A stretch of 64,000 nucleotides of DNA from a virus, in the IMG/VR virus record IMGVR_UViG_3300047551_001153, positions 1-64,000 of that record; one strand, written 5' to 3'. The notes beneath the pieces are model-generated. The model did no database searches, was not told the DNA's origin, and worked only from the letters and a program-made list of their open reading frames with translations. The stretch's first letter is position 1. The number at the start of each line of letters is the position of its first letter. Below are positions 4,838 through 64,000 of this stretch, piece after piece. A program made the position numbers and the translations under genes.

Positions 4838-5236
4838 TTACAGGACGAATTCAAGGATGACGGTTCCCGTGACAACCGCAGTGGGTTTCACATGGAAAAA
4901 TCCATCAGGAGTAGGAGCGGTGTTTTTGATTGTCATGCGCTCAAAAGCAAACTCTCCATTCGCTCCAAATACCGACATGGCGGTCATTCCGCTATTATTA
5001 TCTGGACCGAACTTCAAGTGATAGCCGAATGTTGAGCCGTTTGAAGTCCAAATAATTCTTGAAAGCGAGGGGGTTTGCGCCGTAATACCCGCAATAAACG
5101 GGACACCATCCGCACCACCAATCGCATCAAAAACAGAACCCGTCAATCCGAAAGACATACCTGCGGATTCAGCGACAAAGTTTACTTTTGCCACATGACG
5201 GCGTTGGGTGGTTACAAGATTCTGTTTAGTTGCCAT
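4838..5236 (-). CDS. Putative head/prohead-associated protein (paralog of 5274-5789)
   Basis: 132-aa ORF with GAGG RBS in the head cluster; aligns end to end with the neighbouring ORF. Confidence 0.75.
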   Translation of the reverse strand: MATKQNLVTTQRRHVAKVNFVAESAGMSFGLTGSVFDAIGGADGVPFIAGITAQTPSLSRIIWTSNGSTFGYHLKFGPDNNSGMTAMSVFGANGEFAFERMTIKNTAPTPDGFFHVKPTAVVTGTVILEFVL

Positions 5237-5258
5237 GCTATCCTCTTAGATATGATAT

Positions 5259-5266
5259 TATTTAGC
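5259..5266 (-). promoter_or_regulatory. Late promoter box GCTAAATA
   Basis: Intergenic, about 22 nt upstream of the 5236 ATG. Confidence 0.6.
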
Positions 5267-5273
5267 ATTTTCT

Positions 5274-5789
5274 TCAAAGCACGAATTCAACTGTCATAGT
5301 GCCAGTCACGGTTCCAACTGGTATAAAGCCATCGTATCTGGAATCACTCAAATAAAGAAAGCCCGTGGGTGTGGTGGCGGAATTTTTGATGCTAAAACTT
5401 TCAAACGAAAAATCCCCGTCAGTTCCATTTAGAACTATCGCATTCTGATACGAATATGCGGTCTCATTCGGTGGATGAAGAAGTCTGTCTTCACTTTCCG
5501 AGCCTTGTCCATCATGAAAAATCAAAGCCATTGAAGGTGATGATGTGTTATTTTGCCAACTCCATCTGACTCGTGAGATTTTTGGTGACCCCGCCGTAAT
5601 ACCAGAAATAAATGGCAAACCGTTTGCCCCGCCTATTGCGTCAAAGGATGACCCAGTAATTCCGATTCTATATGCAAGTGCTATCACATCGTCAAGCGGT
5701 GTATCAAACTCATAGTTACTAAGCGTGATGTGCTTAACACATCTTTTCTGTGTCTTAACTATGTCTCTGATGGTTATTGTTCCTGCCAT
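5274..5789 (-). CDS. Putative head/prohead-associated protein (paralog of 4838-5236)
   Basis: 171-aa ORF translationally coupled (TGATG) to the upstream gene; shares TGSxFDAIGGAxGxPFIxGITA and VTGTxxxEFVL. Confidence 0.75.
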   Translation of the reverse strand: MAGTITIRDIVKTQKRCVKHITLSNYEFDTPLDDVIALAYRIGITGSSFDAIGGANGLPFISGITAGSPKISRVRWSWQNNTSSPSMALIFHDGQGSESEDRLLHPPNETAYSYQNAIVLNGTDGDFSFESFSIKNSATTPTGFLYLSDSRYDGFIPVGTVTGTMTVEFVL

Positions 5790-6915: not shown

Positions 6916-6924
6916 GGCTTCCTC

Positions 6925-7557: not shown

Positions 7558-7566
7558 CCTGTGTCC

Positions 7567-9072: not shown

Positions 9073-9095
9073 TACAAATCCTTATTCAAATTTAC

Positions 9096-9722: not shown

Positions 9723-9742
9723 TTGTGATGTTCTCCTTATTC

Positions 9743-9750
9743 TATTTAGA
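9743..9750 (-). promoter_or_regulatory. Late promoter box TCTAAATA for gp19
   Basis: Intergenic, just upstream of the AAGGAG RBS. Confidence 0.65.
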
Positions 9751-9757
9751 GACTAAA

Positions 9758-11575
9758 TTAGGCTCCGACCTCAGAGAACGACACACCCGTTCTCGTAGCG
9801 ATGAAGTTCAACTGAATGAAGTTGATGCTACGGGCGGGTTTGATATAGATGTCAGCGACAAAGCGGTTGCCGTCGATGACCTCTGGGGTGTTGTTCTTTT
9901 CATCGCAAACGACCTTGAAGTCATAAAGACCACGGCGAGACTGGACATCACGCAGGAACGGCTCAACGAGTGAGCGGAACTGCGCTCTGGTAAACGCATC
10001 ATTGAATTCGAACAGGCTGTATTTCGAAGCCGTTGCAATCGCCTTCTCAAGCACGATGAAGAGGCGACGAACATTGATGCGGTCGAACGCCGAGGGCTTG
10101 GCCTGAGCGGTCTTATCACCATAAAGAACCGTGCCTTCACCTGGGAAGGTTACTACGGGATTGATGTTGTTCTTGTACAACTCGTCACGGAATGTCAGGG
10201 TTGGGTTGAAGGCCAATTTGACTACGCCCTTGACCTGACCACGATTGAAGCCTGCGGGTGACCACCAAGGATCATTAGTGACATCTGTGCGGGCGCAGAG
10301 ACCTGCAATATCACCGCACAATGGAACCCAACGATACTTGTCGTTGTAGATGTCGTACATATACTTGTAACCGCTGTCGATCACCACATAAGAAGAAGAG
10401 CCGATGTTATTTCTATAAGCGATTGCGATGTCCTTCTTCTGTGTCTCCGTCAATGCGGGGTTTGAGATCGGGGCCGAGCAGAACAACACGCAATCTTTAC
10501 GAACATCGGTAATACGATCTTTGATAAGTTTAGCGACAGTTGTTCCTGATGGAGAGGAGTTTTGGTATTCTGGACCACCGATGATAAGATTTACATCAAT
10601 CAATTCAGGGTCTTTGAACATATCGTATCCACCAGATGCACTTGCCTCACCGAAAGCAATGTCGGCGTAGTTGATTTCTTCAGTTGGAGCAGTTTCTCCA
10701 ATACCACCAGCCAAATCGTATCTAAGTTTTCCGAAAGTGATCCATGCTCCAGTAGCACCAGCCCATGTAAGCCCTGTGTTTATAGTAAGATCAAAATCAG
10801 CCGTTCCGACAGCCGCACCTGCTGACATACCCATCATACTTAATGTATCAACAATTCTTGGAGTTTCTGGGCAAAAGATGTAAGTTGAATCCTCATTGAT
10901 TCTGTTTCTGAAATATCGGGATACTCCATTTGCGTCATAAGCATCTTCGTACAAAGAGAGATTTTCAAAACGCTCAAGAACAGTTAAAGGTGTTCCTGTC
11001 CACAAACCAGTCTTGTCAACAACGACAAGATTCATTCCATCTCCAGAGCCTCCAAGAGCGGCAAGCGTTTCACTTGTGCCTGGTTTCTTATCAAATTCAT
11101 CCGAGTAATCCCAATCGCTATAGCCAGCCGCTCCACTCTTCGTACCGAATGCTTCAACACGAAGAGAATTTCCCAACTCGCCCGGATATCGGGCAACGAA
11201 AGCACCATGCCCAGTCATGTTTGCATTGCCATAATAATCTTCGTTTCTAAAAAGATTTGGATTAGCAGTTGTGCCTGTCAATCCGTTTGGTGTGGCATTT
11301 CTCGCCTTCGTTTTATTTCTAAGGGAACGAACAACCGAGAGGTTGTTTCCATAAGAGAGGAAGTTTGCGGCAGAGAAGAAGTACTGATAGTTGTCATTAT
11401 TAGGAAGACCAAATGTTTTGACAAGATTATTTTCGCTGTCAATCAATACAACCTTATCAACTGGACCCCAGTTGAAAAGACCCGCAAAAGCGGCATTAGT
11501 GGTGGCTACGGCAGGGACAATCGTTGTAAGATCCCGCTCCGTAACATTTACGCCTGGTGAAAGTTGAAATGCCAT
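9758..11575 (-). CDS. gp18: Tail sheath protein
   Basis: MAFQLSPGV, FNWGP, PWWSPAGFNRG, SAFDRINVRRLF, FEFNDAFTR, KPARSINFIQLNF. Confidence 0.99.
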   Translation of the reverse strand: MAFQLSPGVNVTERDLTTIVPAVATTNAAFAGLFNWGPVDKVVLIDSENNLVKTFGLPNNDNYQYFFSAANFLSYGNNLSVVRSLRNKTKARNATPNGLTGTTANPNLFRNEDYYGNANMTGHGAFVARYPGELGNSLRVEAFGTKSGAAGYSDWDYSDEFDKKPGTSETLAALGGSGDGMNLVVVDKTGLWTGTPLTVLERFENLSLYEDAYDANGVSRYFRNRINEDSTYIFCPETPRIVDTLSMMGMSAGAAVGTADFDLTINTGLTWAGATGAWITFGKLRYDLAGGIGETAPTEEINYADIAFGEASASGGYDMFKDPELIDVNLIIGGPEYQNSSPSGTTVAKLIKDRITDVRKDCVLFCSAPISNPALTETQKKDIAIAYRNNIGSSSYVVIDSGYKYMYDIYNDKYRWVPLCGDIAGLCARTDVTNDPWWSPAGFNRGQVKGVVKLAFNPTLTFRDELYKNNINPVVTFPGEGTVLYGDKTAQAKPSAFDRINVRRLFIVLEKAIATASKYSLFEFNDAFTRAQFRSLVEPFLRDVQSRRGLYDFKVVCDEKNNTPEVIDGNRFVADIYIKPARSINFIQLNFIATRTGVSFSEVGA

Positions 11576-11625: not shown

Positions 11626-11637
11626 CCTTTGATTATT

Positions 11638-13772: not shown

Positions 13773-14600
13773 CTATCCGTTCGGGTATTCCGTGATCGTT
13801 ATGGTAGCCTTGTCGCCTGTTCCGCCTGTTGGCCCCGGCCCTGTCACCGAAATAAAGTAACTTCCCGCCGTAACGCCTGCCTTTGGAACAGCATTGATAT
13901 TGGCGTATGTCGGACCAGTCGCATTGAGCCACTTGGTATCGAATATATTGACATTCGATGCCGTAATAACACGCTGAGTTTTCACAGGTCCGTATAGATA
14001 AACTTTAGCGACAAATTGCATATTTGCTAAAGTAACTTTTCTGCTCGCATAATCACCATAACTTCCGTCATCACCATCGTTCAATGTGGCGGATGAAAAT
14101 ACGATTGGAATATCCACATCTTGATCCGTATTGTCAACCGCCTTTATGGTGAATGTATACTCTGGACCAAAGTAGGGCAAAATCTGCTCCATTATTTGGA
14201 GAGCATCATCCATCGTCTTACTCATGACACTGACCGTAAATGTCAAGTTATAGGGAACACGCTCATATCTCTTGTACAACTTATCACGACTGGATGAATA
14301 GTAGGCCGCAGTCTGTTGAATGGTATTTAATTTGCGAGTTGAGTCATATTGAAAATTTGTTATCTCAAATGCGATGCGGGGAAGGTAGGTTTCCAATCGA
14401 ATTTGATTTTTGTCAAAATCATCACCGATGCGATCTAAGCGACGAAGAAATTTTTGCTGTGGGCCATATGCAACTGGAACCTTAAATCTCTCGATTTCGA
14501 CCCCGTTTTCGTCCTTACGAGAGATGTATATCTCGTTGAATAGCGATGCAAACGCTATTACAACTTTTCTGATAGTTCCGTGATAGAAATATTCAAACAT
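13773..14600 (-). CDS. gp15: Tail sheath stabiliser / terminator
   Basis: YFYHGTIRK..AF.SLFN, VPVAYGP..KF, LPRIAFE, VPYNL, QIMEQILPYF.P. Confidence 0.96.
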   Translation of the reverse strand: MFEYFYHGTIRKVVIAFASLFNEIYISRKDENGVEIERFKVPVAYGPQQKFLRRLDRIGDDFDKNQIRLETYLPRIAFEITNFQYDSTRKLNTIQQTAAYYSSSRDKLYKRYERVPYNLTFTVSVMSKTMDDALQIMEQILPYFGPEYTFTIKAVDNTDQDVDIPIVFSSATLNDGDDGSYGDYASRKVTLANMQFVAKVYLYGPVKTQRVITASNVNIFDTKWLNATGPTYANINAVPKAGVTAGSYFISVTGPGPTGGTGDKATITITEYPNG

Positions 14601-14603: not shown

Positions 14604-15506
14604 TCAGGGGTCTCCAAACGGGTTCTTCTCACTGAAGTTGATGATCTGATCTGCTTCTGATTCAATTTCATCGTTCTTCGACTCGCTAAGTATTCCCATC
14701 TTGTCATCCGCTGTAGATACACTTGCCCAAATGCTTTGGTCAGATTTAGTTATGTAGGAGGTCGCCGCTCCGCCTGTGACCCAAAGGCCAGATAGGTCGG
14801 CAACAGAAAGTACTTGCGGAGATTGTTTGTTGTCAACCGAGATGACTGTCCCGCTTGCGGTTTTCGTCCTTTGAGTCGCACCCGAAAGTCCTCCCGTAAA
14901 CGATCCATTCTCGTATTGATGTACGATATCACCCTTCGCAAAAGTTCCTGTTCCATATGTTTGCCCCAGAGTAACGAGCAACTTGTAGCCCGTCTCCTGA
15001 TTGATGACATCAATCTCGGGAACGCCCGTAGCGAACTTCTCCTCGCTGTACTGGAAGAGTTCACAGGTCAACTGGTACGAAAACAACTTGCCCAGTTGAT
15101 AGAAGGGGTTCTCATGCTCCACGAACTTGATCTCGAACAATCCTCTATTGAGGGGCAGGTACAACAGGTCTCCTTCCAAGGGTCTCTGTTTTCCTGTCTC
15201 TCGTGTAAACCGCTTGCGGGACACGGTGAACTTCACGCTGTCCCGAATCTCAAATCCGAACTTCGTAAATGTGTCGCCACCCTCGAACGCCGTGGTGGTG
15301 TCCATGTACATCTCGATCATCTTGAACTTGGTGAAACGGGAGTAGCGAGACTCACCGAAGAAATCGTCACGCTTCACCAACTCACGAGGAATGTAAAACA
15401 TCTCCTGCCCGTGAATCTTGATGGCTTCAATCGTCAAGTCCTCCACCAGATTACGCTCTGGGAAGTAGGTCTTGTCATTCACCCGAATGTATGGATTGAG
15501 TGCCAA
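14604..15506 (-). CDS. gp14: Neck protein
   Basis: EAIKIHG..YIPR, RPLEGDLLYLP, FEIKFVEHENPFYQLGK, FSEKNPFG; TTG start after an AAGGAG RBS. Confidence 0.96.
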   Translation of the reverse strand: MALNPYIRVNDKTYFPERNLVEDLTIEAIKIHGQEMFYIPRELVKRDDFFGESRYSRFTKFKMIEMYMDTTTAFEGGDTFTKFGFEIRDSVKFTVSRKRFTRETGKQRPLEGDLLYLPLNRGLFEIKFVEHENPFYQLGKLFSYQLTCELFQYSEEKFATGVPEIDVINQETGYKLLVTLGQTYGTGTFAKGDIVHQYENGSFTGGLSGATQRTKTASGTVISVDNKQSPQVLSVADLSGLWVTGGAATSYITKSDQSIWASVSTADDKMGILSESKNDEIESEADQIINFSEKNPFGDP

Positions 15507-15516
15507 ATGATTCTCC

Positions 15517-16326
15517 TTATCCCATCATGAAGTCGGCGGGAAGTTCATACTTGTTGATAATGTCTTTTTCAATTGTATCAATTTCAGCCACAGCCTCCGT
15601 GTACATAGTCTTGCCATCAAGAGTGATGTCGCCTGGTAGTTTGATTCCCGAATATTTTGACAGATTCTGACCCCACTGTCGCTTGAAAAGGGCAACAGCA
15701 TATTTCTTGAGAAGACGATCCTCATAAATTTCGGGGTAGATACGGGGGTCAAGAATACGATAGCATTCTATGATGAGATACATACCCGCCGAAACACTTG
15801 ATGCCCATTGCATATCAATATAGAGCCTGTTTTGAACACGATTGAATCTGACGCTCTTGTCAGGACTCAAATATTGACGAAGCAGAGTAAGGTATTGCTG
15901 AGTGAGGTCATACTGAACAAGGTCAATGGTTCCGAAGGTATACAAGTCGTTCAATGCGTATTGATAGCGAATGTCAAACATACCGACTGATTGCTGAGTA
16001 AACGGGAAGATACGGGTCACGCTTGTGACCAAATCTTCCAAATAAACATTCTCACCGTCAACCGATGTGAACTGTCGCTCGGATGCGGAGAAACCTGTAT
16101 TGTCCGCCTTCATCTCAATGTAGCCGTTTGAGATGTCCTGAGCGGTGACCTGATACTTCAGGTAGACCTTTTCCACGCCGTCGAAGTGATATTCAGAGAA
16201 GAATCGCAGGGCATCATCAAGACGGTCTTCAACCTGTTCATCCGCTATGTTTACTTCGATTACGGGTTCGCCGAGTGCCCTTAGGCAGTACTGTCTCAGT
16301 CCTTCCCTTGACCTTATCTGCGCCAT
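15517..16326 (-). CDS. gp13: Neck protein
   Basis: LRQYCLRALGEPVIEVN, YHFDG, KRQWGQNLSKY.G..LPG, YELP..FMMG. Confidence 0.97.
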   Translation of the reverse strand: MAQIRSREGLRQYCLRALGEPVIEVNIADEQVEDRLDDALRFFSEYHFDGVEKVYLKYQVTAQDISNGYIEMKADNTGFSASERQFTSVDGENVYLEDLVTSVTRIFPFTQQSVGMFDIRYQYALNDLYTFGTIDLVQYDLTQQYLTLLRQYLSPDKSVRFNRVQNRLYIDMQWASSVSAGMYLIIECYRILDPRIYPEIYEDRLLKKYAVALFKRQWGQNLSKYSGIKLPGDITLDGKTMYTEAVAEIDTIEKDIINKYELPADFMMG

Positions 16327-16777: not shown

Positions 16778-20233
<3,456 letters not shown>

Positions 20234-21521: not shown

Positions 21522-21887
21522 TCAGATTTTTGTAACCTCTGGATAAACCGTAATCATTCCCTGAACCACTCGATATACTTTTGTTGGTGGGATTCCATTT
21601 CCTGCACCATCTTTGGGGGTGATGTGCAATTCAACATCATAAAAATAGACTCCACCTTTCACTCCAGAAGATCCTGTAGCACTCAAAGAAACAAGAATCT
21701 CTCCTGTACTACCTGTAATTGTAGTATTGAAAGTAACTGCTGATGTAGAGGAATAATGCTTCCTCATCTGACAAAAAGCAGTCGCACCGCCTGTAATAGC
21801 AACGGCAAAACCATCGCTGTCTTTGCGAGTTGCAACGAAACTGAAGTCAGTTCCTTGGTCAAGATCGTAGTTGATGCTAATTGCCAT
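21522..21887 (-). CDS. Conserved T4-like virion structural protein
   Basis: DQGTDFS, QMRKHYSS, G.YFYDVE, RVVQG.ITV.PEVT pattern typical of cyanophage-like hypothetical virion proteins. Confidence 0.7.
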   Translation of the reverse strand: MAISINYDLDQGTDFSFVATRKDSDGFAVAITGGATAFCQMRKHYSSTSAVTFNTTITGSTGEILVSLSATGSSGVKGGVYFYDVELHITPKDGAGNGIPPTKVYRVVQGMITVYPEVTKI

Positions 21888-26762: not shown

Positions 26763-26966
26763 TTACTTCTTCCTTATTTCTTCTATTAGTAAACGGAGTT
26801 CGGCCAGTTCATTTTCGAGTTTATTTAGTCGTTCTCTATCCGATTCAATCTTTTTTCGCCTGTTTTCATATATGCGTATCGCATCTCTATCAACTGATAA
26901 AATCGCCCCAGTTGACTTATCACGAACGAGTCCAGAGTTGTTTTTTACTGGTATCTTTTCACTCAT
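26763..26966 (-). CDS. Small conserved coiled-coil protein
   Basis: LVRDKSTGAILSVD plus coiled coil; this type of ORF usually follows the VrlC-like gene in T4-like phages. Confidence 0.75.
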   Translation of the reverse strand: MSEKIPVKNNSGLVRDKSTGAILSVDRDAIRIYENRRKKIESDRERLNKLENELAELRLLIEEIRKK

Positions 26967-31957: not shown

Positions 31958-31967
31958 TTTTTCTACC

Positions 31968-51900: not shown

Positions 51901-52768
51901 ATACTTTTGACAACCTGATCAAATCTTCGGTATGATTTCTCTTGCTTTCAATCGAATACCATTCTCTCGATTCTCCCTCATGGTCATACAATGGATTGAT
52001 GTCTGGACAAATCCAACCCGATTTTTCCAAAATTGTAGATACGCTGTCGGTGAAATTGGATAAATGCCAGTCCTTCAAATCCTGCGGAGCGTTTGCCCAA
52101 CTATACATTACCTCATCCAGATTTCCTATCTTGGGATGATTGTTGTCCCAATAGTTTGTGGACCCTACTCCTGTATTTGTTCCATAGCCACCCTCAGACA
52201 TAACCTGAGAAAATTGCCAAGTGAAAAAATCGTTTGTTTCTGGTGCGTAAATGACTGTCTGAGGAATGTAGGGAAGTCCCGCAAAACTAAATTTGATTTT
52301 TGGGAATGTGTTGTTCAAATGTTCAAGCATCGCTGTGGCGGCTGAGACCGTCTGCGTAAATATAGTCGAACTCTTGTTTGATTGTCCGATAATACCATCA
52401 CCCGTGATGATATTCCATGAGGGAGATCCTCTAAAGTCCAACAATATTTTGCCTGATATCTCATTATCAAAAACATAATTTGTGGCAATATAATCAGAGA
52501 AGTCGGTAAGACCAGTTTCTTCCATTCCCGTCATACTTGGACTTTGCCAAAATACGGGGATATATGCAACCAAGTTATCAGTACCGCTTGAGGGAGTTCC
52601 GTCAGATGGTGTTTCCTGAACTCTGTAATCAAAAATATCGTTCAACTGATCGCCGTGTGTATTTCCATAATTCGGAAACGGATTGGGATATGTATTTCCA
52701 TTCTTTGCCGTATATTCTTCAGTAAAGGATGGGAGTGCATTGAATAATTTGAAATATTTTATTGGCAT
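48917..52768 (-). CDS. Large mosaic protein (about 1283 aa): possible hydrolase-like N-terminus, fibre-derived domain, Cys-rich C-terminus
   Basis: Long ORF; start taken at MPIKYF just after a GATAAATA box; shares a domain with the 1618-aa fibre. Confidence 0.8.
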   Translation of the reverse strand: MPIKYFKLFNALPSFTEEYTAKNGNTYPNPFPNYGNTHGDQLNDIFDYRVQETPSDGTPSSGTDNLVAYIPVFWQSPSMTGMEETGLTDFSDYIATNYVFDNEISGKILLDFRGSPSWNIITGDGIIGQSNKSSTIFTQTVSAATAMLEHLNNTFPKIKFSFAGLPYIPQTVIYAPETNDFFTWQFSQVMSEGGYGTNTGVGSTNYWDNNHPKIGNLDEVMYSWANAPQDLKDWHLSNFTDSVSTILEKSGWICPDINPLYDHEGESREWYSIESKRNHTEDLIRLSKVYADNDVINNGSERKEVLPLVNNMYRSRFIGFYDDPTGRFLRGKKIEDSRTSSIVSFLDGYTGNKSYATDKFISEAMFKGGMIEPAASPYLSNTPINTIYGCDGFVYLDQIPFALTAAFSSDQSSGNLEYLQRRSRNFIGRESFGTPPSENLPIWSNNSYAQYQPISFEYDQNKIVVLSVSGNGLTTDTFNEHKYVMVKGSGETANYEILRWKQPDQRLTGGTLTISPYTEGVVVGVTGNTGEGFPSVGLTFYYYNTTSGGFANPDNIGRIAGVSYGGETSYISLFKFKRDVNIRDQIILDGKISITGPIGPNSKWDFTIVRNPEFDLFYNPPVTGSSLTKLSVPRLLDIPTVFEEPPRITDEDISGLNVKIRTMTITGNDLFPTESELYKQHEFYSKTYASDYMRFLSESVPIGSSNQTLMFNSNGNCVGVSGAELVLSNRWNNSYQCVGQEDTPPTLSDFSPLADNCCDYVPVLCCLPSPEGTQCRGSCSIVQRAQCERMGGTRVSTCEECLADDTLAGSCYINNICSSVIVGKCDCIRAGGEWYADFGLRLRLRIEGASISDFFDDVKYIKVYDPSTQAQIIYTVHPTGYSPLPPRGSIQEGHLNVFVNGVIPTPGSVSSTNDVNVNDLFIISEVVKNDGTTIVVGVLYSIKITAVSDIYFDRCAQNCSDCGVIPHLECFSIDTILWESSDCTCQVGVPLKIYSHKIKRNMFNGCCSDQCLSSNGCVFRSEVGLGGPPVPSSRRPSAISYSGGRCGCSSRSNFIGDVSQTQVVRDRGAAGLVNVQETSFVSKCIEIPDDTITNLERSFGATACVCSNTGIPIPPLNCQYRRISLGNSPMPCRAQFGTDIPISNNISGPKYSMSLTTRTIPEFLLSSEIPNQDKGELMNIFFGVNEFPQGITTVADIERFFYTRNDYPIRPLAKVSQNWRYYNSLYNENNQQINRASFPEINRRMDIHTINKIKLMNGADQFFRNHRYVPTSAVDITYNILTR

Positions 52769-52776
52769 GGCTTGCT

Positions 52777-52784
52777 TATTTATC
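52777..52784 (-). promoter_or_regulatory. Late promoter box GATAAATA
   Basis: 8 nt upstream of ATG 52768. Confidence 0.55.
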
Positions 52785-53376
52785 AGATACAACCAGAAAG
52801 AATATCTTCAACTGATTTTGGCATGAATTTATGTGATTGCGCTCGGAAAGAGGTGGGCATTTTTCTCAAAACCGAACTCGCATATGGATTCTTGCGAAAG
52901 TTTCTTATTTTTTGCTTTTCCATAAAATGGTACATATAGACATTGCAGTTTGCTTCTTGGGCATACCTTTCCATGTCGAAGTCTATTCCATGTTCAATCA
53001 TGAGTGAAACGGTAATCTTTTCGCACTCCCGTTCCATGGCTCTATATGTCTCAAAGGCCCGTTTGACTTTTGCCGATGAACACTTCTTCCCTCTTGTCCA
53101 GTCCTCAACGACCTCGGCATAATTGTTCAGAGGGCCGAAGCATTTGCGGTACAGGGGAGATCCGACTTTCCATTGAATGAAGTGGGAAAACTCGTGCGCC
53201 AAAACTTCAATCCATCTTGGATTTTTTAATGCTACACATACCTCTTCATCGGTGAAATATCCAAGGCATTTATAACCATCACCAACTAACCAATTTACTT
53301 TTTTCAAACGAAGTCTTATTCCTTCTTCTTTCAAAGAGGATCTGACAAGAGAAATAAATTTCTTCTTATTGTTCAT
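52783..53376 (-). CDS. Putative zinc metallopeptidase-like protein (HExxH)
   Basis: VLAHEFSHFIQW followed by a downstream ERECE glutamate (zincin pattern). Confidence 0.65.
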   Translation of the reverse strand: MNNKKKFISLVRSSLKEEGIRLRLKKVNWLVGDGYKCLGYFTDEEVCVALKNPRWIEVLAHEFSHFIQWKVGSPLYRKCFGPLNNYAEVVEDWTRGKKCSSAKVKRAFETYRAMERECEKITVSLMIEHGIDFDMERYAQEANCNVYMYHFMEKQKIRNFRKNPYASSVLRKMPTSFRAQSHKFMPKSVEDILSGCI

Positions 53377-56116: not shown

Positions 56117-56710
56117 TCAGATAAGATTGAGATTCACATAATGGCCATAGAATGCAGGGTTGGTTACGACCGTTGTAGTGACGGGAACCGAAAGAGTGCT
56201 TGGTCTGCCGCCTGTAGTAATGGTTTGAAACACGCCAGACTGTATTTCATCAGCACGACCATAACCATGGAACTGACACATGGTTGATGCGCTCATGCCG
56301 ACCGCAACCCAAAGTTGGTCACCAACTTTTATTGACTGGTCGAGCACAACATTTACTTTCTTTCGGTTTGCAATACCTGTTCCAACGCCATACACTTGCG
56401 CCGAAATGTCAGTATATCCGAGTCTCGTCAATGAAGCACCGCCGCCAAGTGTGAAATCTCCTCTGAATATTCCTATTTCAGCCCAACTGATTGATACGGC
56501 GGTTCCTGCATCAACGATGTATTGAACTTCGGCGTTTTCGCTGTTGATTCCTGCAACGCCCATGTAATAGAAATACGGTTGTTTTCCGTCAGCGGTTGTG
56601 GGCGAGCGATATGTTGCGCTACTGCTTGTTCCGTTGAAAACAGCCGTTGGAAAAAGAGCGTTGGTTGTATTATTTACGATATCATGAGGAACTGCGTAAT
56701 TGTGTGACAT
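56117..56710 (-). CDS. Putative virion appendage protein, paralog 1 of 3
   Basis: Start MSHNYA coupled by TAATG; WAEIGI..G, LTRLG, LWVAVG motif shared with neighbours. Confidence 0.7.
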   Translation of the reverse strand: MSHNYAVPHDIVNNTTNALFPTAVFNGTSSSATYRSPTTADGKQPYFYYMGVAGINSENAEVQYIVDAGTAVSISWAEIGIFRGDFTLGGGASLTRLGYTDISAQVYGVGTGIANRKKVNVVLDQSIKVGDQLWVAVGMSASTMCQFHGYGRADEIQSGVFQTITTGGRPSTLSVPVTTTVVTNPAFYGHYVNLNLI

Positions 56711-57378
56711 TATGCTCTCCCTGTATAATATTTCAACGAAAACCAAGGAAAGATGTTTGTCGGTGAATCAGGTATTACGGGGAAATGTGGTCCTGGTCCC
56801 ACGGTATTGGATATGGCAAGTGTGGATGCGCCCTGTGCGTTTGAAAGTATACCCGATGCATTTGTGTCAAATCCACCACCAGTTAAAACTGGAGCAACTG
56901 GGCTTGTGCCACCTGTTGCGTTGTATCCGAACACAATCCACAGCGGTGTTCCAACCGATATTGTTGTGCCCGTGATGGGTGACGCTGTATGTCCAAAAAC
57001 GATTCGTTTCAATCCTGCGGTAGCACCGTTAGTGGTGCTGTTGACGATCCCTTGAATGTTCACAGTTGATAAAACAGATAAAGTATTCACGCCGCTCATT
57101 TGAAAATTATATAATCCTTTACACAAACCGATTTCCATATAGTAGTTTGTGGGAGCGGATGCACCATAACTCGCAGGTGTCTTCAGGTGAAAGTTCATGG
57201 AAACAGCACCGACCGTAATCGGAGCATATCCCACAAACACGGCTCTCCATGTGGAAGACATGGTAAAACTGTTAGATACAATCGTTGCTAAACTTGTTCC
57301 GTCAACGCAAACTCTACCGCTTTGTCCAAAACGGGAGCCTACTACCAAAGGTGTTTTGTTGAGTGAATTATTAGCCAT
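56710..57378 (-). CDS. Putative virion appendage protein, paralog 2 of 3
   Basis: YMEIGLCKG...LKRI...VGTPLWIVFG. Confidence 0.7.
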   Translation of the reverse strand: MANNSLNKTPLVVGSRFGQSGRVCVDGTSLATIVSNSFTMSSTWRAVFVGYAPITVGAVSMNFHLKTPASYGASAPTNYYMEIGLCKGLYNFQMSGVNTLSVLSTVNIQGIVNSTTNGATAGLKRIVFGHTASPITGTTISVGTPLWIVFGYNATGGTSPVAPVLTGGGFDTNASGILSNAQGASTLAISNTVGPGPHFPVIPDSPTNIFPWFSLKYYTGRA

Positions 57379-57982
57379 TCAATTTCACCGTAATACGAGG
57401 AACATATGTCGCTGTCGCTCCATATGCAAAACTGGTCGCAGGATTGGTCATGTCGGACAATTTTTGATTGCTCAACGCCACGGTCAAATATCTGCCACTC
57501 TGAAGAAACTCGGGACTTGTCGCCCAAAGAGTGCTACAAACACTTGCCGAACAGCCGATGGCCACCCACAATTCCTCTCCCAAATCACAAGTAGAACCGT
57601 TGAATGAGCAATCAAATGCTTTGAATCCTGTGGTTCCGCTGACGATGCTGACGGTTCCCATTCTCGTAAGAGAGGAAGGAAGAGTTTCTACCTGAGCAAA
57701 CGGAGCGGCGGCGGTGGCAGGAACGCCCGCTGTTAATGACTCTGGATAAAAGCCTTTCCAAATACCCACTTCCGCCCATGTAACATTTGTTCCCGTCACC
57801 GACATATACATCGCAACACCACAACCAGTAAGAGAAGCGGATGGCGATGGGCCAAGATAGAAACAATGTGCGGATTGAGATGTCAGGCTGACCGTGGTGT
57901 TCACAACGCTGGAAAACCAGTTCGTACTAAGAACCGTATCGCCTCGCACAAGATATTCATTTGTTGTATAAGATTGACTCAT
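57371..57982 (-). CDS. Putative virion appendage protein, paralog 3 of 3
   Basis: WAEVGIWKG, LTRMG, LGEELWVAIG, LQSG. Confidence 0.7.
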   Translation of the reverse strand: MSQSYTTNEYLVRGDTVLSTNWFSSVVNTTVSLTSQSAHCFYLGPSPSASLTGCGVAMYMSVTGTNVTWAEVGIWKGFYPESLTAGVPATAAAPFAQVETLPSSLTRMGTVSIVSGTTGFKAFDCSFNGSTCDLGEELWVAIGCSASVCSTLWATSPEFLQSGRYLTVALSNQKLSDMTNPATSFAYGATATYVPRITVKLNG

Positions 57983-58185
57983 ATGGATGCAATGTAATTA
58001 TAAAAATCCTGAAAACTGAAAGTTCTGTCTAAGGTTGATGAACCGTTGAGTTGCACACGAATTTGCCCCGATTCTGTTGCGGTTAGGACAATACTGTCCA
58101 AACCCTCGCTCGCCGAAAGCGTATCCAAAGGAACCGAGATGTTTTCAGTCACTTGGTGGATGACTGTTTTTGCTCCGATTATCAT
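57979..58185 (-). CDS. Small hypothetical protein
   Basis: 68-aa ORF with ATGA overlaps on both sides. Confidence 0.65.
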   Translation of the reverse strand: MIIGAKTVIHQVTENISVPLDTLSASEGLDSIVLTATESGQIRVQLNGSSTLDRTFSFQDFYNYIASI

Positions 58186-58511
58186 GTGATTTCCACTCCA
58201 AAAGCGTTGAATGAAAGATTGGCGTTGCCTGCATACACCCGAATCTTGTCGGTTGTTGCAAGGCTGATGCCTATTGTGGCCACGAATGTGTCCATGCCGC
58301 CGATGGTAATATCGTCATACAAGTAGTCTTTGTTTGTAGTAGCCGCACCCGCTTGACTTACCGAGATGCGAAAGGTGGTGCTTGTGGTTCCACGATTGCA
58401 CACGACGATACTGCTCACAACCGCACTTGTGGCGGCGGGAACCGTATACAAGTCGGTTTCGGTTGTGGCGTTTGGAGCCGATTGACCTAAGATTTTTACC
58501 GTGTCTGGCAT
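58182..58511 (-). CDS. Conserved small phage structural protein
   Basis: KILGQSAP.ATT.TDLYTVP, VVSSIVVCN, D.IRVYA...SF.AFG.E pattern common in phage tail regions. Confidence 0.75.
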   Translation of the reverse strand: MPDTVKILGQSAPNATTETDLYTVPAATSAVVSSIVVCNRGTTSTTFRISVSQAGAATTNKDYLYDDITIGGMDTFVATIGISLATTDKIRVYAGNANLSFNAFGVEIT

Positions 58512-58514
58512 ATA

Positions 58515-59018
58515 TTACATTCCTGAAAACAAGAAAGGTCTTGATAGTGATGTTTGATATGAACCTGTGATGCTGACTGTTCCTGTTGCGCTGACCGAGA
58601 AGTGGTTCGGGTTGAATGACGCTACACCCGTCACGCCTGTGGTTGTTGCAAGGGGTGAAGAGCCACCACCACCTGCCGAGGATGAGATTGTGATTGTGCT
58701 TCCGACCGTGCTTACTGTAACATTTGAACCCTGAGCGATTGTTACTGGGCCAGTTATGCTGTTGACGGAGGTTACATAGTTGCTTGTAAGACTTACGGCT
58801 CCTGCGGCACTTACTACAAACTCATTACCGAACGAAGCAACACCCGTCACACTTGAAGTGGCAAGAGGCGGTGCGTATGTTACAGCACCCGTGGACCCAT
58901 TGAAACTATTGACAACATTGGACGACGAAACCGTGCCAACAATAGCACCGCTGGCGTTCACTACCGTTGTGCCGTTGACCGAGAATCCGTCCGTTGAGTC
59001 AAATTGTGTACCTGCCAT
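58515..59018 (-). CDS. Short fibre-like repeat protein
   Basis: Two PLAT..VTGVASF..F.VS..G.VS repeats plus V.SFNG.TG.V. Confidence 0.75.
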   Translation of the reverse strand: MAGTQFDSTDGFSVNGTTVVNASGAIVGTVSSSNVVNSFNGSTGAVTYAPPLATSSVTGVASFGNEFVVSAAGAVSLTSNYVTSVNSITGPVTIAQGSNVTVSTVGSTITISSSAGGGGSSPLATTTGVTGVASFNPNHFSVSATGTVSITGSYQTSLSRPFLFSGM

Positions 59019-59027
59019 ATCTTACCT

Positions 59028-59035
59028 TATTTAGA
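59028..59035 (-). promoter_or_regulatory. Late promoter box TCTAAATA
   Basis: Intergenic, 9 nt upstream of ATG 59018. Confidence 0.55.
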
Positions 59036-59037
59036 AG

Positions 59038-59913
59038 TTATGCCCCAGCCCCACCGACAATTGGTGACAATACAGCATATACTCTGAATATCGTGCTTGT
59101 TGCTGATGCGGGAGTCGCTCTTAGTCTCCATTCGTCACTCGAATAATCCACCGTAAATGTAGCAACCGTATTACCAACCGATACGGTTCCATATTGAGTA
59201 TGCGTAACCGTTGAGCCGTCAGCAAGAGCGACAATCATGAATCGTGTTGAGAGAACACCCAAAGTTCCCGATACTAAAGTTCCCTGTTCCGCTTGAACTA
59301 TAATATCAGCAGAAGCATATCCTTCTATAAGACTCAATGCCCCGCTACTTGCAAGCGTAAACTGAGATGTGCTTGTAGTGGTGCTTGTGTATGTCTTGAC
59401 AACCTGACCGCTTGGAAGCCTGATTATGTCGGATACAGCATCACCAACTGTCAGGTTTCCGTTGATGGCGACATTTCCGTTGAAGGTCGCACCTTGAGCA
59501 ACAAAGAGACTTTGAGTGGTAAGTCCGCTTGTGAAACTCGCTCGGCTGTTGAAGGTCGCACCCTGCGAAACTAACAGACTCTGGGTCGTGAGACCTGCGT
59601 TGAGCGTTTGAAGACCCGTGAAGGTGTTTGCCGAGTTGGTTCGGGCGACATTAGAGAGACTAACAGCACCCGACGAAACCGTGAAGTCGGACGAGTTGAA
59701 CGAGGCGACACCCGTGACGCTTGTGGTGGCGAGGGGTGGAGCATAAGTGACTGCACCCGTGGAACCGTTGAAACTGTTGACGATATTTGGTGCTGAAATA
59801 TTTCCGCTGAATGTAGCACCCAGACCGACAAAACCTCTTGCCGAGTCTATGACAACCGAGTTGCCCGTTCCTACGGAAAATCCGCCTACTGAATTGTATG
59901 GTTGGATAGACAT
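59038..59913 (-). CDS. Fibre-like protein
   Basis: One VTGVASF repeat, ANTFTG motif, duplicated GLTTQSL.V.QGATFN, C-terminal beta domain shared with 59925-61718. Confidence 0.75.
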   Translation of the reverse strand: MSIQPYNSVGGFSVGTGNSVVIDSARGFVGLGATFSGNISAPNIVNSFNGSTGAVTYAPPLATTSVTGVASFNSSDFTVSSGAVSLSNVARTNSANTFTGLQTLNAGLTTQSLLVSQGATFNSRASFTSGLTTQSLFVAQGATFNGNVAINGNLTVGDAVSDIIRLPSGQVVKTYTSTTTSTSQFTLASSGALSLIEGYASADIIVQAEQGTLVSGTLGVLSTRFMIVALADGSTVTHTQYGTVSVGNTVATFTVDYSSDEWRLRATPASATSTIFRVYAVLSPIVGGAGA

Positions 59914-59924
59914 GGGTTATATCG

Positions 59925-61718
59925 TTAGACTATTTGATTGAGTCCCTTATAGATGATGGTATTGATGTCAAAATATGTTTTTGCCGATGAACTGGGTGTA
60001 ACCACCAATCCCCAATAATCATTATAACCTGTCGCTTCAATAGCGAATGTTCCTAACTCCGTTCCTGTAGAAATGTTTGAATATTCCGTGAATTTTGCAC
60101 CAGAGCCGTTTTGATTGCCCAAAATCATGAATTTTCTTATGCTATAGTTAATTTGGTCATCTGTGTAGGCAAAAACCGTGACATCCGCCGCATGGTGATA
60201 TGATATGGATACGATGGATGCGGTGATTCCGCCCGTTGAACCTGAATCTGGTGTAAACGAATATTCGTTTGGCTCCGCACCCTGAACCAATAAAACTTTT
60301 GTCGTTGAATTAGTTATGACTTGCTTTCCGAGGTTGTCGGATATTGTGGTCGCTCCGCAGTCTGGATAAGAAAGCAGTCTGTACTTGTTTGTTTGGTACA
60401 TTACTTTCTGACATTCAATGTCGGAGCCATATACTGTTGGAGGTACAAATCCATCGGGCGGAACCGTAACATTATTTGGTCTAAACAGATTAACTTGACC
60501 GACATTTGTTACAAAAAACTGAACAGGATTGTAACTGTTAACACCCGTAATTGAAGTGGTTCCAAGCGGAACAGCATTTTCAATGCGAGCCAGATTTCCA
60601 GTTTTGGTTATGACTATCCTATTTCCCGCTGTAACCGAATCACCTGTCACCTGATATGATGGAGCAAGAGAGACAGCACCAAGACCACTTACTGAAAAAT
60701 AAGTTGAATCGAAAGATGCTACGCCCGTCAAACTTTGAGTCGCAACAGATGGAGCATATACTACTGATCCTGTAAAACCGTTGAAACTCTTGACATAATT
60801 TGCAGTAAGGCTCACACTGCCTAAATTACTGACCACAAACTCATCAGTAAAAGATGCTACACCCGTAACAGAACTTGTAGCCACAGGACTATTACTTCCA
60901 ATTGTTACAGTATTACCCGATCTTGATACTGAAATCCTTGAACCCGCTACAACTGTATCACCTGTTACTTGATATGTCGATGCTAAAGAAACAGCACCCA
61001 AGCCACTAACGGTAAAGTATGATGAGTTAAAGGATGCTACACCTGTCAAACTTTGTGTGGCAACGGGTGTGGCATACAAAACAGATCCTGTAAGGCCATT
61101 GAAACTCTTGACATGGTTGCTTGTTATACTTACTGCACCCAAAGCACTTACAATAAATTCGTTACCAAAAGATGCCACGCCTGTGACACTGGAGGAAGCG
61201 ATAGGAATTACTGCGGGGAGGCTACTAAGAGTAACATTACCTGTCTGTCCATTTATTGATTTTACAATACCTGCTGTTAGACTTACAGCACCGAGTGCCG
61301 ACACATTAAAATCAGTTGCATTAAAAGATGCCGCACCAGTAATACTGGATGATGCAATTGGAATATTGACAGAACCAGAACCAACAGGGACACCATTAGA
61401 ATATATGGTTCCCTGAACATATAAATCTTCTTGAATTCCAACACCACCATAAACAACTAAAGCACCAGTTGATACACTATTTGACGGGGTGGTGTTTTCA
61501 ATATTAACTACACCCTGAAATATATTTGTATCTGTAAATGTGTTGGGTAATGCGAGCAAAGCCGCACCAACTGGTGTTGAGCCTAATTCAACGATGCTTC
61601 CCGTGCTACCAACAAACAATCTTCCATCAGCCACATTTACAGCAAGTTCACCCAATGTCAAACCTGTGGGTTGAAAACCCGCAGTAAGACCACGCTTGAT
61701 TTTGATGATATTCGCCAT
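59925..61718 (-). CDS. Tail fibre-like protein with tandem repeats
   Basis: IKIKRG...GELAVN..DGRLF N-terminal fibre anchor, TGALVV.GGVGI, six P.AT.S.TGVASF-type repeats. Confidence 0.82.
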   Translation of the reverse strand: MANIIKIKRGLTAGFQPTGLTLGELAVNVADGRLFVGSTGSIVELGSTPVGAALLALPNTFTDTNIFQGVVNIENTTPSNSVSTGALVVYGGVGIQEDLYVQGTIYSNGVPVGSGSVNIPIASSSITGAASFNATDFNVSALGAVSLTAGIVKSINGQTGNVTLSSLPAVIPIASSSVTGVASFGNEFIVSALGAVSITSNHVKSFNGLTGSVLYATPVATQSLTGVASFNSSYFTVSGLGAVSLASTYQVTGDTVVAGSRISVSRSGNTVTIGSNSPVATSSVTGVASFTDEFVVSNLGSVSLTANYVKSFNGFTGSVVYAPSVATQSLTGVASFDSTYFSVSGLGAVSLAPSYQVTGDSVTAGNRIVITKTGNLARIENAVPLGTTSITGVNSYNPVQFFVTNVGQVNLFRPNNVTVPPDGFVPPTVYGSDIECQKVMYQTNKYRLLSYPDCGATTISDNLGKQVITNSTTKVLLVQGAEPNEYSFTPDSGSTGGITASIVSISYHHAADVTVFAYTDDQINYSIRKFMILGNQNGSGAKFTEYSNISTGTELGTFAIEATGYNDYWGLVVTPSSSAKTYFDINTIIYKGLNQIV

Positions 61719-61877
61719 TTAGAAGTTTCCGCCGTCAATATTTATAGAGAAAAGGTCATCTATGCTGATGGTGGTTACGGGGTACACCTGCCAAGCCTCT
61801 CCGTCCCAACGCCAACTGGAGTAATCATATGTATAGATTTGATTCAACGAAGGATTTGCAGGAAATGCGAGTGCCAT
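61719..61877 (-). CDS. 52-aa protein with FP.NP...W.WDG..W motif
   Basis: Below the track cutoff; MALAFPANPSLNQIYTYDYSSWRWDGEAWQ...IDGGNF after an AAGGA RBS. Confidence 0.75.
   Translation of the reverse strand: MALAFPANPSLNQIYTYDYSSWRWDGEAWQVYPVTTISIDDLFSINIDGGNF
61739..61746 (-). promoter_or_regulatory. Late promoter TATAAATA (inside the 52-aa ORF)
   Basis: Perfect consensus 20 nt upstream of the 61718 ATG. Confidence 0.6.
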
Positions 61878-61886
61878 GGTTGTTCC

Positions 61887-63170
61887 TTAGATGATATCAA
61901 ACCAACTCAAATCAATAGAAATGTTTGTGCTTGCCGCAAAAGCCCGAGCCGCAATCGTAACCGTATCACTTTTTCCAGTTGCGCCTGTTATGCTCGTTTG
62001 AGTGCGTCCAAGTTGAAAGTTAAAGTCGTTGATGGATGATATGTCAAGCACACCGCTCTCATCAAAGAAGCCGCCAATAATATCGGTTCCTGTGACCTCA
62101 ATGTGTGTGGGGGTAAAAGTATAATCAACATTTCCGTTTACATGGGTCGTCCATACCACATTTGGGCTACCTTGAGCCGACAAACCAGCATTAAGCAACA
62201 CACGATATTCAACGGCTCGTGTGCCTGCGGCTTGATTGCTTGTGGTAACTAATCCGTTTAGATTGGAGGGAACCACCACACTATCCAAACGATTTTCATT
62301 TAGTCGTATTGATACAAGCGGACGCAGGCGGTCGGTGGGTAAATTGGTTATAGGACTTCCGTCAGTACCAACATTCGCACGGCGACTGAAACCTTCGTAT
62401 CCACCTTCGCTAATTATGCTACTGCAAATCTGCTTCATGGTTGCGCCCGTGATACTCTGTCCGTTCAGTGTTCCAGTCACGCCAGTTCCGATGGACTCAA
62501 TCTCGTAACGAACAGGAAGCACCGCCGTGGTCATGTATGTGGTGGAATTGATGTTGTCGTTGTGAAATATGTGGGCAATCACAGGCTTGCCGTCTATGAA
62601 GAAACCCGTTCGCACATCGCCCACGCCAAGCCATTCAATGTCCGTCCAGAAAATGTTTGCGCCTGTGACACTCAACACACGACCGCTTGGTCCGTTGCCA
62701 TCGTATGTGTCATCGCTCCAACTTGATTGTGGAATGCGGCGAGTGGTGCTGTCCACGGTTCCAGTAACATTTGAGCGCAGAACCATGTATGCGGTCAAAC
62801 CATCTTGTTCAAAATACACGCCGTTTTTTTCGCCGAAGTATCCGACTCGTTGACGCAGATTTTGGTGCGGTTGGTTCATCACGAATGTGTTGAGACTCAA
62901 CAGCGACTTGCCGGGTTGATACGGAAACACACGCTTGGTTTCACGATACACTTTTGACCCCGTGGTCAAGCCGATGGTCATGTGAATCGTGCTTTCGTTG
63001 GGCATGTGATGGTGGGTTCCGCCAGTTGCGGTGATGGTACTCCACTTGTCGTTTTCTTGATAGCGGTGTTGCGAGTCGAACAGAGTGAAAGGATTGGCCA
63101 CACGCAGACGATTGAAAGCGTCAACCGTATCCTCTTTGAAACCCACCAAATCGTTGAACAAGTAACTCAT
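61887..63170 (-). CDS. Conserved phage structural protein
   Basis: DAFNRLRVANPFTLFDS, YQPGKS, WLGVG.VR.GF, LP.RYEI, QICSS.ISEGG; start MSYLFN via ATGA overlap. Confidence 0.75.
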   Translation of the reverse strand: MSYLFNDLVGFKEDTVDAFNRLRVANPFTLFDSQHRYQENDKWSTITATGGTHHHMPNESTIHMTIGLTTGSKVYRETKRVFPYQPGKSLLSLNTFVMNQPHQNLRQRVGYFGEKNGVYFEQDGLTAYMVLRSNVTGTVDSTTRRIPQSSWSDDTYDGNGPSGRVLSVTGANIFWTDIEWLGVGDVRTGFFIDGKPVIAHIFHNDNINSTTYMTTAVLPVRYEIESIGTGVTGTLNGQSITGATMKQICSSIISEGGYEGFSRRANVGTDGSPITNLPTDRLRPLVSIRLNENRLDSVVVPSNLNGLVTTSNQAAGTRAVEYRVLLNAGLSAQGSPNVVWTTHVNGNVDYTFTPTHIEVTGTDIIGGFFDESGVLDISSINDFNFQLGRTQTSITGATGKSDTVTIAARAFAASTNISIDLSWFDII

Positions 63171-64000
63171 ATGATTCTCCACCCCGCACGATAAATGAAC
63201 TGCAATGCACCATTATCTATCGCCAACACCGCTGAGTCTTGGTTGTCTATCTTATGGGACGCACTACCACCCACAATCGTGATTCGGTGGTTTACGCCCT
63301 TTCCACAGTTTCCAGACTCGTCCTTGATGGTGATTTGCCTACCCGTCTCTGGGCTTACAGGGAGAGTAATCGTCACGGGGCCGTCATAGTTCACGCCGAC
63401 ATAGTAATCGCTGTCCGTAACCTGATAGGATGAGGCGGTCACCGATGCGGTCGCCAAAATGGAGACCGTCATGTTGGGCATACTGGGCTGAAGCCAGACA
63501 TAGGCTCCACCCGCACCCGCAGGCGCATAGACATACTCAATACCCGTATCCGAGTCCATCCAACGGCTACCTGCCGTTATGCCTGTTGTTGGGGCAGTCG
63601 CCCTGTAGTTGTAGTCGCTTGAGCGAATCTTGAGGGTGTTCGTGGCGGAGTCTGTCGTGAGAAAGACATGATATCCCGCTTCAACGGTCAGGGTTTCTTT
63701 ATCGTACTGAACCGAAGTCAGGTCAGATTGACCCGAAACGCTGATGACCTTGAACGCTGTGTCCAGACCACCACCGCCGTCATACAGGACGGGCTTACCA
63801 CCACCGCTACCAGACCCGATAACCTTTTGAAGTTTCTTCAGGTCGATGCTGATGCGTTGGTCTTTGAGAACCAAGGGAGCCTGAGCCGACACGATGCCCA
63901 TCGGACCCGTATCGCCCTTCTCACCCCTATCGCCCTGAGGCCCTGCTAATCCTTGCTCTCCTTGTGGTCCTCGTAACCCAACAGGGCCTTGATTTCCTTG
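63167..64000 (-). CDS. Collagen-like repeat fibre protein (5' end outside the window)
   Basis: Frame stays open to 64000 (QGNQGPVGLRGPQGEQGLAGPQGDRGEKGDTGPMG...), then G.RW.DSDTG..Y and DYYVGV...TITLP...G...IKDE domains. Confidence 0.85.
   Translation of the reverse strand, partial: QGNQGPVGLRGPQGEQGLAGPQGDRGEKGDTGPMGIVSAQAPLVLKDQRISIDLKKLQKVIGSGSGGGKPVLYDGGGGLDTAFKVISVSGQSDLTSVQYDKETLTVEAGYHVFLTTDSATNTLKIRSSDYNYRATAPTTGITAGSRWMDSDTGIEYVYAPAGAGGAYVWLQPSMPNMTVSILATASVTASSYQVTDSDYYVGVNYDGPVTITLPVSPETGRQITIKDESGNCGKGVNHRITIVGGSASHKIDNQDSAVLAIDNGALQFIYRAGWRII

Follow-up and report, generated by a model that had tools for sequence, protein, structure and literature searches.

The DNA analysed here (hereafter the window) is a stretch of 64,000 nt that corresponds to positions 1 to 64,000 of the IMG/VR record IMGVR_UViG_3300047551_001153, the parent contig of which is 77.6 kb. 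It carries the structural module of an uncultured T4-like myovirus in which almost every gene lies on the minus strand. This report concerns two of its features: a gene for a putative protein glycosyltransferase (20282..21460, minus strand; 392 amino acids, aa) and a tetrapeptide motif, G-x-T/S-G/A, hereafter G.[TS][GA], that is scattered over many of the encoded proteins. Genes for head and tail proteins (gp23, gp22, gp21, portal, tube, sheath, TerL, TerS, gp15, gp14 and gp13) are followed by those for a fibre of 1151 aa with a collagen-like run, the glycosyltransferase, a small LtfC-like protein and a second fibre of 1618 aa. Baseplate genes (VrlC-like, gp8-like, gp7-like, gp6, gp25, PAAR, gp5 and gp48), replication genes (primase, gp46 and NrdJ) and, between 56 and 64 kb, a group of genes for small Gly/Thr/Ser-rich proteins complete the set. 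Metagenomes of freshwater, reservoirs, lagoons, wastewater and estuaries, produced by several studies, contain near-identical DNA, and the nearest cultured relatives, namely Stenotrophomonas phage DLP6, Pelagibacter phage HTVC008M, Methylophilales phage Melnitz and cyanophages, are just 42-51% identical in the sheath.

The N-terminal part of the glycosyltransferase matches the GT2 families PF00535 (E = 1.9e-8) and PF13704 in Pfam, with TPR matches falling below the cut-off. The AlphaFold2 (AF2) model (predicted local distance difference test score, pLDDT, 91.5) consists of an alpha/beta GT-A domain (aa 20-185) followed by ten helices (aa 194-391, pLDDT >90) that form a TPR-like domain. A DADE sequence of the DxD type in the GT-A domain (aa 107-110; 21131..21142, minus strand) is predicted to bind metal and nucleotide-sugar; two of its residues, D107 and D109, do not vary among 25 homologues, and it aligns with DADD in SgtA of Clostridioides difficile. 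In Foldseek, the full-length model is closest to SunS and ThuS, which glycosylate glycocin peptides (E = 3e-14), and its helical half matches consensus TPR proteins and the TPR domain of O-GlcNAc transferase (OGT). By sequence, the best match in the PDB is Listeria GmaR (E = 2.5e-8), with SunS (E = 0.008) and ThuS also found. The enzyme is 27% identical to SgtA over 242 residues (BLASTP E = 2e-22), and a profile of its family aligned to SgtA with an hhalign probability of 99.3%, across the catalytic domain and the first TPR. The nearest characterised relatives of the enzyme are thus all protein or peptide glycosyltransferases; it is not a SunS orthologue since it scores 23 with the NCBIfam SunS equivalog model, the cut-off of which is 350. 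A preliminary description of this DNA had named the phage's own glycosyltransferase as the likely writer of a modification, a role that the predicted GT-A and TPR fold and the homology to SgtA make credible. A gene for a second glycosyltransferase (PF03407, Nucleotid_trans, E = 3.4e-12) is located between uvsY and uvsW at contig positions 69934-70641 (minus strand), 5.9 kb past the end of the window.

The gene lies in the fibre operon, and the adjoining fibre gene (16778..20233, minus strand) starts 48 nt downstream of it. This fibre contains a collagen-like run (aa 446-508; 18710..18898, minus strand) with a block of GxT triplets similar to that of BclA3, a collagen-like glycoprotein of the C. 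difficile spore exosporium (PMC7157674). SgtA, a protein of 358 aa with a GT-A domain and four TPRs, is encoded immediately upstream of bclA3; assayed as a MalE fusion on synthetic peptides, it transfers beta-O-linked N-acetylglucosamine (GlcNAc) from UDP-GlcNAc onto Thr residues, and onto Ser too, of peptides such as AGLIGPTGATGV, and single-site peptides with G-P-T-G, G-A-T-G or G-A-S-G are substrates as well (PMC7157674). All the peptides of that work have Gly at the fourth position (P4) of the motif and a collagen-like context. In the C. difficile locus retrieved via the primer given in that paper (L135), sgtA lies directly upstream of bclA3 on the same strand, the arrangement found in the phage. 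Thr occupies 39% of collagen Y positions in the enzyme-bearing clade defined below versus 71% in BclA3, and no such collagen runs were found in the enzyme-less relatives or in the control phages. Homology, architecture and synteny therefore support well the proposal that the GxT collagen run is glycosylated by an SgtA-type enzyme, which by analogy with SgtA and BclA3 we consider probable; the run at 18710..18898 is most likely the primary substrate.

G.[TS][GA] occurs 136 times in the 50 called proteins of the window. After masking of collagen-like runs of at least four triplets, 119 instances were observed versus 43.6 expected from whole-protein shuffles and 46.4 from local shuffles of 30 residues (z ca. 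11), a count that was reached in none of 1000 shuffles; with the stricter masking of runs of at least three triplets, 103 were observed versus 41.9 expected (z = 10). Permuted versions of the motif were flat (0.92x for the reverse [GA][TS].G, 0.89x for G[TS].[GA] and 1.04x for G..G), G.[ND][GA], G.[VIL][GA] and G.A[GA] each stood at or below 1x, and G.TA and G.TG exceeded expectation by 3.5x and 3.1x, respectively. An unbiased scan of all gapped words of two to three residues returned G.TA, GLT, S.TG, G.TG, TG.T and VTG as the top high-count words. In a test free of shuffling, T/S located two residues after a G preceded G/A in 31% of cases versus 16% for other T/S (Fisher odds ratio 2.34, p = 2.6e-10). 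The motif excess depends on residue order. Position by position, G (3.2x) and S (2.0x) are preferred at P1, I, L and A (6-7x, D, K and R being absent) at P2, T (3.2x) and S (1.6x) at P3, and A (3.4x), G (3.0x) and F (2.6x) at P4, preferences that, taken from sequence, look like those of a recognition site. The preliminary description had picked out the motif by eye; all the tetrapeptides it quoted are present in window proteins, and the count against shuffled controls (119 versus ca. 45) indicates that the enrichment is real.

Several simpler causes of the excess were considered and rejected. Paralogous repeats do not account for it because the 103 instances fall in 96 distinct and unrelated contexts, with just 11 of them (4 clusters) in recognisably paralogous ones. 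Collagen periodicity was set aside on the basis of the flat G..G count, the enrichment of G.TA alongside G.TG and the z value of 10 after masking of runs of three triplets or more, and local clustering of composition on that of the 30-residue shuffles and the permuted motifs of the same composition. A repeated DNA word is not involved either, since 132 sites are encoded by 130 distinct 12-mers. In frame the motif is counted 132 times, as opposed to 10-32 times in the remaining five frames. At G.T[GA] sites of this contig, Thr is encoded by ACT in 44% of cases versus 23% for T[GA] elsewhere in the same proteins (p = 6e-4), a bias that is limited to this contig and absent in clade relatives (28% versus 27%).

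The excess is unevenly distributed among the proteins of the window. In annotated outer virion proteins, 75 motifs were observed versus 23.7 expected (3.2x), in annotated inner or non-virion proteins 4 versus 5.4, and in unannotated proteins 40 versus 17.2. The comparison of structural with non-structural proteins that had been proposed earlier thus comes out as anticipated, as does the scarcity noted by eye in terminase, portal, protease, primase, gp46 and NrdJ: TerL, portal, protease, gp46 and NrdJ have no motif and primase has one. Across the clade the excess is also uneven within proteins. The sheath reaches 2.7x in aa 88-325, with 0 observed versus 4.2 expected in the N-terminal core and 10 versus 8.4 in the C-terminal core; gp15 reaches 5.4x in its C-terminal extension, with 2 versus 3.6 in the core; and in gp14 the part that follows the Hc2 core has 66 versus 28.5 (2.3x), with 0 versus 5.2 in the core. 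Within single proteins of the clade, as counted on their sequences, the excess is confined to variable regions and absent from conserved cores. The region of T4 gp18 that matches the variable insert of the sheath presumably forms outer domains, and the AF2 model of this protein, a weak one (mean pLDDT 61.9), puts all six sheath motifs of the window in coil; location in variable regions and coil in this low-confidence model suggest that the sites may be surface-exposed.

Along the window, and with all coordinates in this paragraph on the minus strand, the motif-bearing proteins are as follows. The major capsid protein gp23 (1581..2972) has five motifs, three of which share a loop (GGSGSTGATAAG, aa 128-139), and two small paralogues of 132 and 171 aa encoded between the protease and portal genes (4838..5789) have three and two motifs at shared positions. 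All six sheath motifs fall in the variable region of gp18 (aa 88-325; 10601..11314), the C-terminal extension of gp15 (aa 215-275; 13776..13958) has three, and the neck proteins gp14 and gp13 (14604..16326) have one each. The fibre of 1151 aa has 22, of which 10 versus 3.7 expected are outside collagen runs; the LtfC-like protein of 121 aa (21522..21887) has three, and the fibre of 1618 aa (21903..26759) has 21 versus 6.7 expected. Further along, the VrlC-like structural protein of 1671 aa (26963..31978) has 13 non-collagen motifs versus 3.5-3.8 expected, the gp8-like baseplate wedge protein of 780 aa (31968..34310) has 9 versus 1.8-2.3, the gp7-like baseplate protein of 722 aa (34345..36513) has 6 versus 1.0-1.7, four of them in short G-x-x triplet runs, and an unannotated protein of 1291 aa (48917..52792) has 6 versus 2.1-2.3. 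No motif was found in gp6.

Comparison with other phages indicates that the excess is not shared by T4-like viruses at large. Under the same pipeline this contig scored 2.28x, the T4 structural region 1.03x, DLP6 1.26x and 0.91x, HTVC008M 1.16x and S-SM1 1.29x; odds ratios from the shuffle-free test ranged from 1.02 to 1.52 in these control phages (pooled 1.15, p = 0.12). A generic property of T4-like structural proteins was therefore rejected as a cause, the four control phages and 18 enzyme-less relatives all being near 1x. At the level of orthologues, the VrlC-like and gp8-like proteins, the sheath and gp15 exceed their counterparts, and homologues of these four in enzyme-less phages are at expectation, as is the VrlC-like protein in DLP6, HTVC008M and S-SM1. 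gp23, which had been included in the earlier list of motif-rich structural proteins, is not unusual in this respect: with the GGSGSTGATAAG loop masked it has 2 motifs versus 1.0 expected, and DLP6 and S-SM1 have 4 and 3, respectively, so that it does not clearly exceed its orthologues.

A search with the glycosyltransferase recovered 77 IMG/VR loci at 54-88% identity; in metagenomes, 6127 homologous proteins were found at E <= 0.001, and the best 120 of these 6127 are all at least 69% identical and close members of the clade. In the 53 enzyme-bearing loci of at least 9 kb, 1411 motifs were observed versus 660 expected (2.14x; odds ratio 1.93), with the reverse motif at 1.11x. Among loci found via gp13, every relative with at least 52% identity in this protein and enough flanking DNA has the enzyme, the gene of which lies directly upstream of gp13 in one subclade. 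In relatives at or below 44% gp13 identity no enzyme was found within 10 kb, and the motif is at ca. 1.1x (odds ratio 1.09). The comparison with T4-like phages lacking the glycosyltransferase that the preliminary description had called for thus sets values near 1x against 2.1x in the enzyme-bearing clade. By family, the clade sheath stands at 2.3x, gp15 at 4.4x (outgroup 0 versus 2.5 expected), the LtfC-like protein at 6.9x, the VrlC-like protein at 2.6x and the fibre at 1.9x; values are low for portal (0 versus 2.0), tube (0 versus 6.1), TerL (0.45x) and the enzyme itself (0.58x). In these sequence counts, the motif excess co-occurs with the predicted enzyme and is restricted to the clade that bears it. 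Avoidance of the motif in cytoplasmic proteins is not claimed: 15 were observed versus ca. 38 expected in clade portal, tube, TerL, enzyme and hyp179, these sequences are non-independent, and the TerL alignment displays no systematic loss of ancestral sites.

Two side observations relate to the variable proteins of the clade. Several relatives have two tandem full-length sheath (gp18) paralogues (L084, at 7224-9017 and 9056-10849; L103; L110; L112; L113), the differences between which lie mostly in the variable region with the motifs. One subclade has gp15 fused to a Cys/Pro/Trp-rich C-terminal domain of ca. 550-600 residues, giving full proteins of ca. 780-800 aa (L091:4335-6728, L092:2657-5050, L093:11732-14125 and L094:4192-6528); this domain replaces the short motif-rich extension and has few G-x-T-G/A sites.

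Individual sites are poorly maintained. Only 32% of window motifs are kept at the aligned position in orthologues versus 52% for the reverse pattern; positional conservation, sought as a sign of selection, was thus not found, and the result is read as turnover. The C-terminal extension of gp15 is hypervariable in sequence and length, yet 2-7 motifs are present in most clade members (0-1 in a few), and enzyme-less relatives have a different C-terminus with no motif. In sheath orthologues the motifs occupy differing loop positions. Such turnover at a kept density agrees better with selection for the motif itself than with an element that defines the fold.

These data lead us to propose that the phage encodes a soluble SgtA-type protein O-glycosyltransferase in its late module and that the dispersed G-x-T/S-G/A sites would be virion-wide sequons for the same enzyme, a reading that, by analogy with SgtA, we regard as evenly balanced between being right and being wrong. 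The TPR domain would bind the substrate and the GT-A domain, as predicted, would carry out catalysis. The enzyme would act while particles assemble in the host cytoplasm, taking a sugar from a nucleotide-sugar of the host, UDP-GlcNAc if it behaves as SgtA, and passing it to the hydroxyl of Thr, or less often Ser, within an extended and flexible G-x-T/S-G/A segment. The GxT run of the fibre encoded immediately downstream would be the primary substrate. In sheath, neck, baseplate and fibre proteins, the minimal sequon would have arisen, disappeared and arisen again in loops and extensions that are variable and face outwards, so that the virion would carry dispersed O-glycans, which the PF03407 enzyme may extend once they have been primed by the GT-A and TPR enzyme. 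Catalysis, the donor sugar, the sites used and a biological role in shielding, stability or adhesion would all follow from this scheme. Its stronger form, in which the phage glycosylates its own virion in the manner of OGT, one GT-A and TPR enzyme reading both collagen fibres and dozens of loop sites, is put forward tentatively. With similar reserve, sites that turn over at a maintained density might be to a bacterial virus what glycan shields are to eukaryotic viruses, with a defined minimal sequon.

A number of observations weigh against the proposal of virion-wide sequons. The link between enzyme and excess is essentially one phylogenetic contrast, that of one clade versus its outgroups. 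The G, T/S and G/A residues of the motifs are not more conserved than the same residues elsewhere, and the sheath model is poor as a guide to exposure. Half of the excess has Ala at P4, for which SgtA offers no precedent. In T4-like phages, one site in the sheath and one in TerS are ancestral regardless of the enzyme: GG[ST]GD of the sheath and the site that follows it are conserved in T4-like phages that lack the gene. Tunturiibacter phage Tunturi_5, an unrelated acidobacterial jumbo phage, has a 37%-identical enzyme and, 3.7 kb away, a tail fibre with abundant GAT/GPT repeats, but outside collagen runs the motif is not in excess (16 observed versus 23 expected), and in two huge phages with enzymes of 28-30% identity nothing was found within 20 kb, which is uninformative. 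As a test in an independent lineage, Tunturi_5 speaks for a pairing of the enzyme with GxT collagen and not for the dispersed sequon. The earlier idea of a modification site written across the virion therefore holds as far as an order-, clade- and outer-region-specific excess that matches the SgtA acceptor is concerned, and is weakened by Tunturi_5 and by the few ancestral sites. As separate observations on Tunturi_5 (L083, 17179-58120), the reverse motif [GA][TS].G was observed 38 times versus 23 expected outside collagen runs (z ca. 3.3), and the enzyme homologue adjoins a nucleotidyltransferase gene. As for TerS, most orthologues in the clade and in the outgroup alike keep one conserved G.[TS][GA] site, which is therefore taken as structural; the TerS of the window (13308-13766) does not have it.

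The result in Tunturi_5, where enzyme and GxT collagen fibre occur with no dispersed excess, is what would be expected if only the collagen runs of the fibre were modified and the dispersed motifs derived from decayed collagen-like fragments or from loop preferences of the clade. The SgtA precedent is likewise limited to collagen-repeat peptides, some of the dispersed motifs lie in short triplet runs (e.g. GGSGSTGATAAG, GPGPTGGTG and GASGASG), and the word TG.T together with a T/S preference at P6 hints at a leftover GxT periodicity. Such an origin nevertheless appears rather unlikely to us: G..G is at 1.04x and G.TA, which breaks collagen periodicity, is enriched like G.TG, the excess extends to the non-fibre sheath, gp15, VrlC-like, gp8-like and LtfC-like proteins, 96 of 103 contexts are unrelated, and the density kept despite positional turnover argues for selection on the motif itself. 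An improbable explanation in our view is that the motif forms turns or strand caps in folds common in outer proteins of the clade, with the enzyme acting elsewhere, on the host envelope or another phage product. The positions conserved without the enzyme (GG[ST]GD of the sheath with the next site, and one in TerS), the motif-containing SFNGxTGxVxYAP repeat of fibre type described below and the six of six sheath sites in coil or turn regions of the weak model (pLDDT 61.9) would agree with it. Homologues of VrlC, gp8, gp15 and sheath in enzyme-less phages are at expectation, however, the sites are not positionally conserved, unlike a fold-defining element, and the gene, whose closest characterised relatives act on proteins or peptides, is in the fibre operon beside the GxT collagen gene. 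Finally, an artefact of composition, DNA-level bias or gene calling, to which the ACT bias of this contig (44% versus 23%) might point, is largely refuted and very improbable, given that this bias is missing in clade relatives, that local shuffles and permuted motifs control composition, that nearly every site has its own 12-mer, that the motif is concentrated in frame and that the Fisher test is free of shuffling.

The proposed virion-wide sequons can be set beside several known systems. SgtA and the phage enzyme both measure ca. 360-390 aa and combine a GT-A domain at the N-terminus with TPRs at the C-terminus, the gene of each lies directly upstream of, and on the same strand as, a collagen-like gene with many GPT/GAT triplets, and the proven SgtA acceptor, Thr/Ser in G-x-T/S-G, is the motif enriched in the phage. 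They differ in that the phage gene sits in a T4-like late structural module and that its candidate acceptors, as read from sequence alone, extend to dispersed sites of sheath, neck, baseplate and fibre, including those with Ala at P4. SunS, ThuS and GmaR have the same combination of GT2 (GT-A) and TPR domains and act on peptides or proteins; SunS and ThuS, however, modify Cys/Ser of one dedicated ribosomal peptide, and GmaR is the Listeria flagellin O-GlcNAc transferase that doubles as an anti-repressor. Eukaryotic OGT (TPR and GT41) is a soluble, TPR-guided transferase with many substrates and a weak sequon, as the phage enzyme would be, although its catalytic fold is GT-B and that of the phage enzyme GT-A, and in viral envelope glycoproteins sequons turn over while their density is kept.

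Among phages, glycosyltransferases encoded by mycobacteriophages reportedly modify proteins of their own virions (Freeman et al. are said to have found this in 2023), with sugars on C-terminal extensions of capsid and tail-tube subunits and reportedly no short sequon described; those phages are siphoviruses of actinobacteria, whereas here a T4-like myovirus would bear a defined tetrapeptide across many proteins. To our knowledge, virion glycosylation in tailed phages is experimentally established only for mycobacteriophages, and we know of no short sequon for any phage. If the proposal were true, a defined four-residue acceptor and a small soluble O-glycosylation enzyme would be at hand as a possible tool for glyco-engineering, and an abundant group of freshwater T4-like phages would bear sugars on host-recognition and tail surfaces, with a bearing on adsorption, resistance to proteases and grazing, aggregation, and recognition by antibodies or lectins. 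The evolution of a glycan shield would also become testable in a bacterial virus.

A few other regions of the window deserve mention. An open reading frame (ORF) of 514 aa (3-1544, minus strand) runs past the start of the window and has no annotation, and another of 617 aa on the plus strand (1122-2975), antisense to gp23, is probably spurious. At the other end, the unannotated Gly/Thr/Ser-rich cluster (56710..64000, minus strand), which is probably fibre-like, encodes proteins of 222, 203, 109, 167, 291, 597 and 431 aa and a collagen-like protein that continues past the window end; several of these proteins are 2.5-4x enriched in the motif. Three of them (58515-59018, 59038-59913 and 59925-61718, minus strand) have in common the repeat [VI][VK][NK]SFNG.TG.V.YAP, inside which the motif is located. 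This SFNGxTGxVxYAP-type repeat presumably resembles tail-fibre repeats of other phages, and on that basis additional fibres may be encoded in the 56-64 kb cluster.

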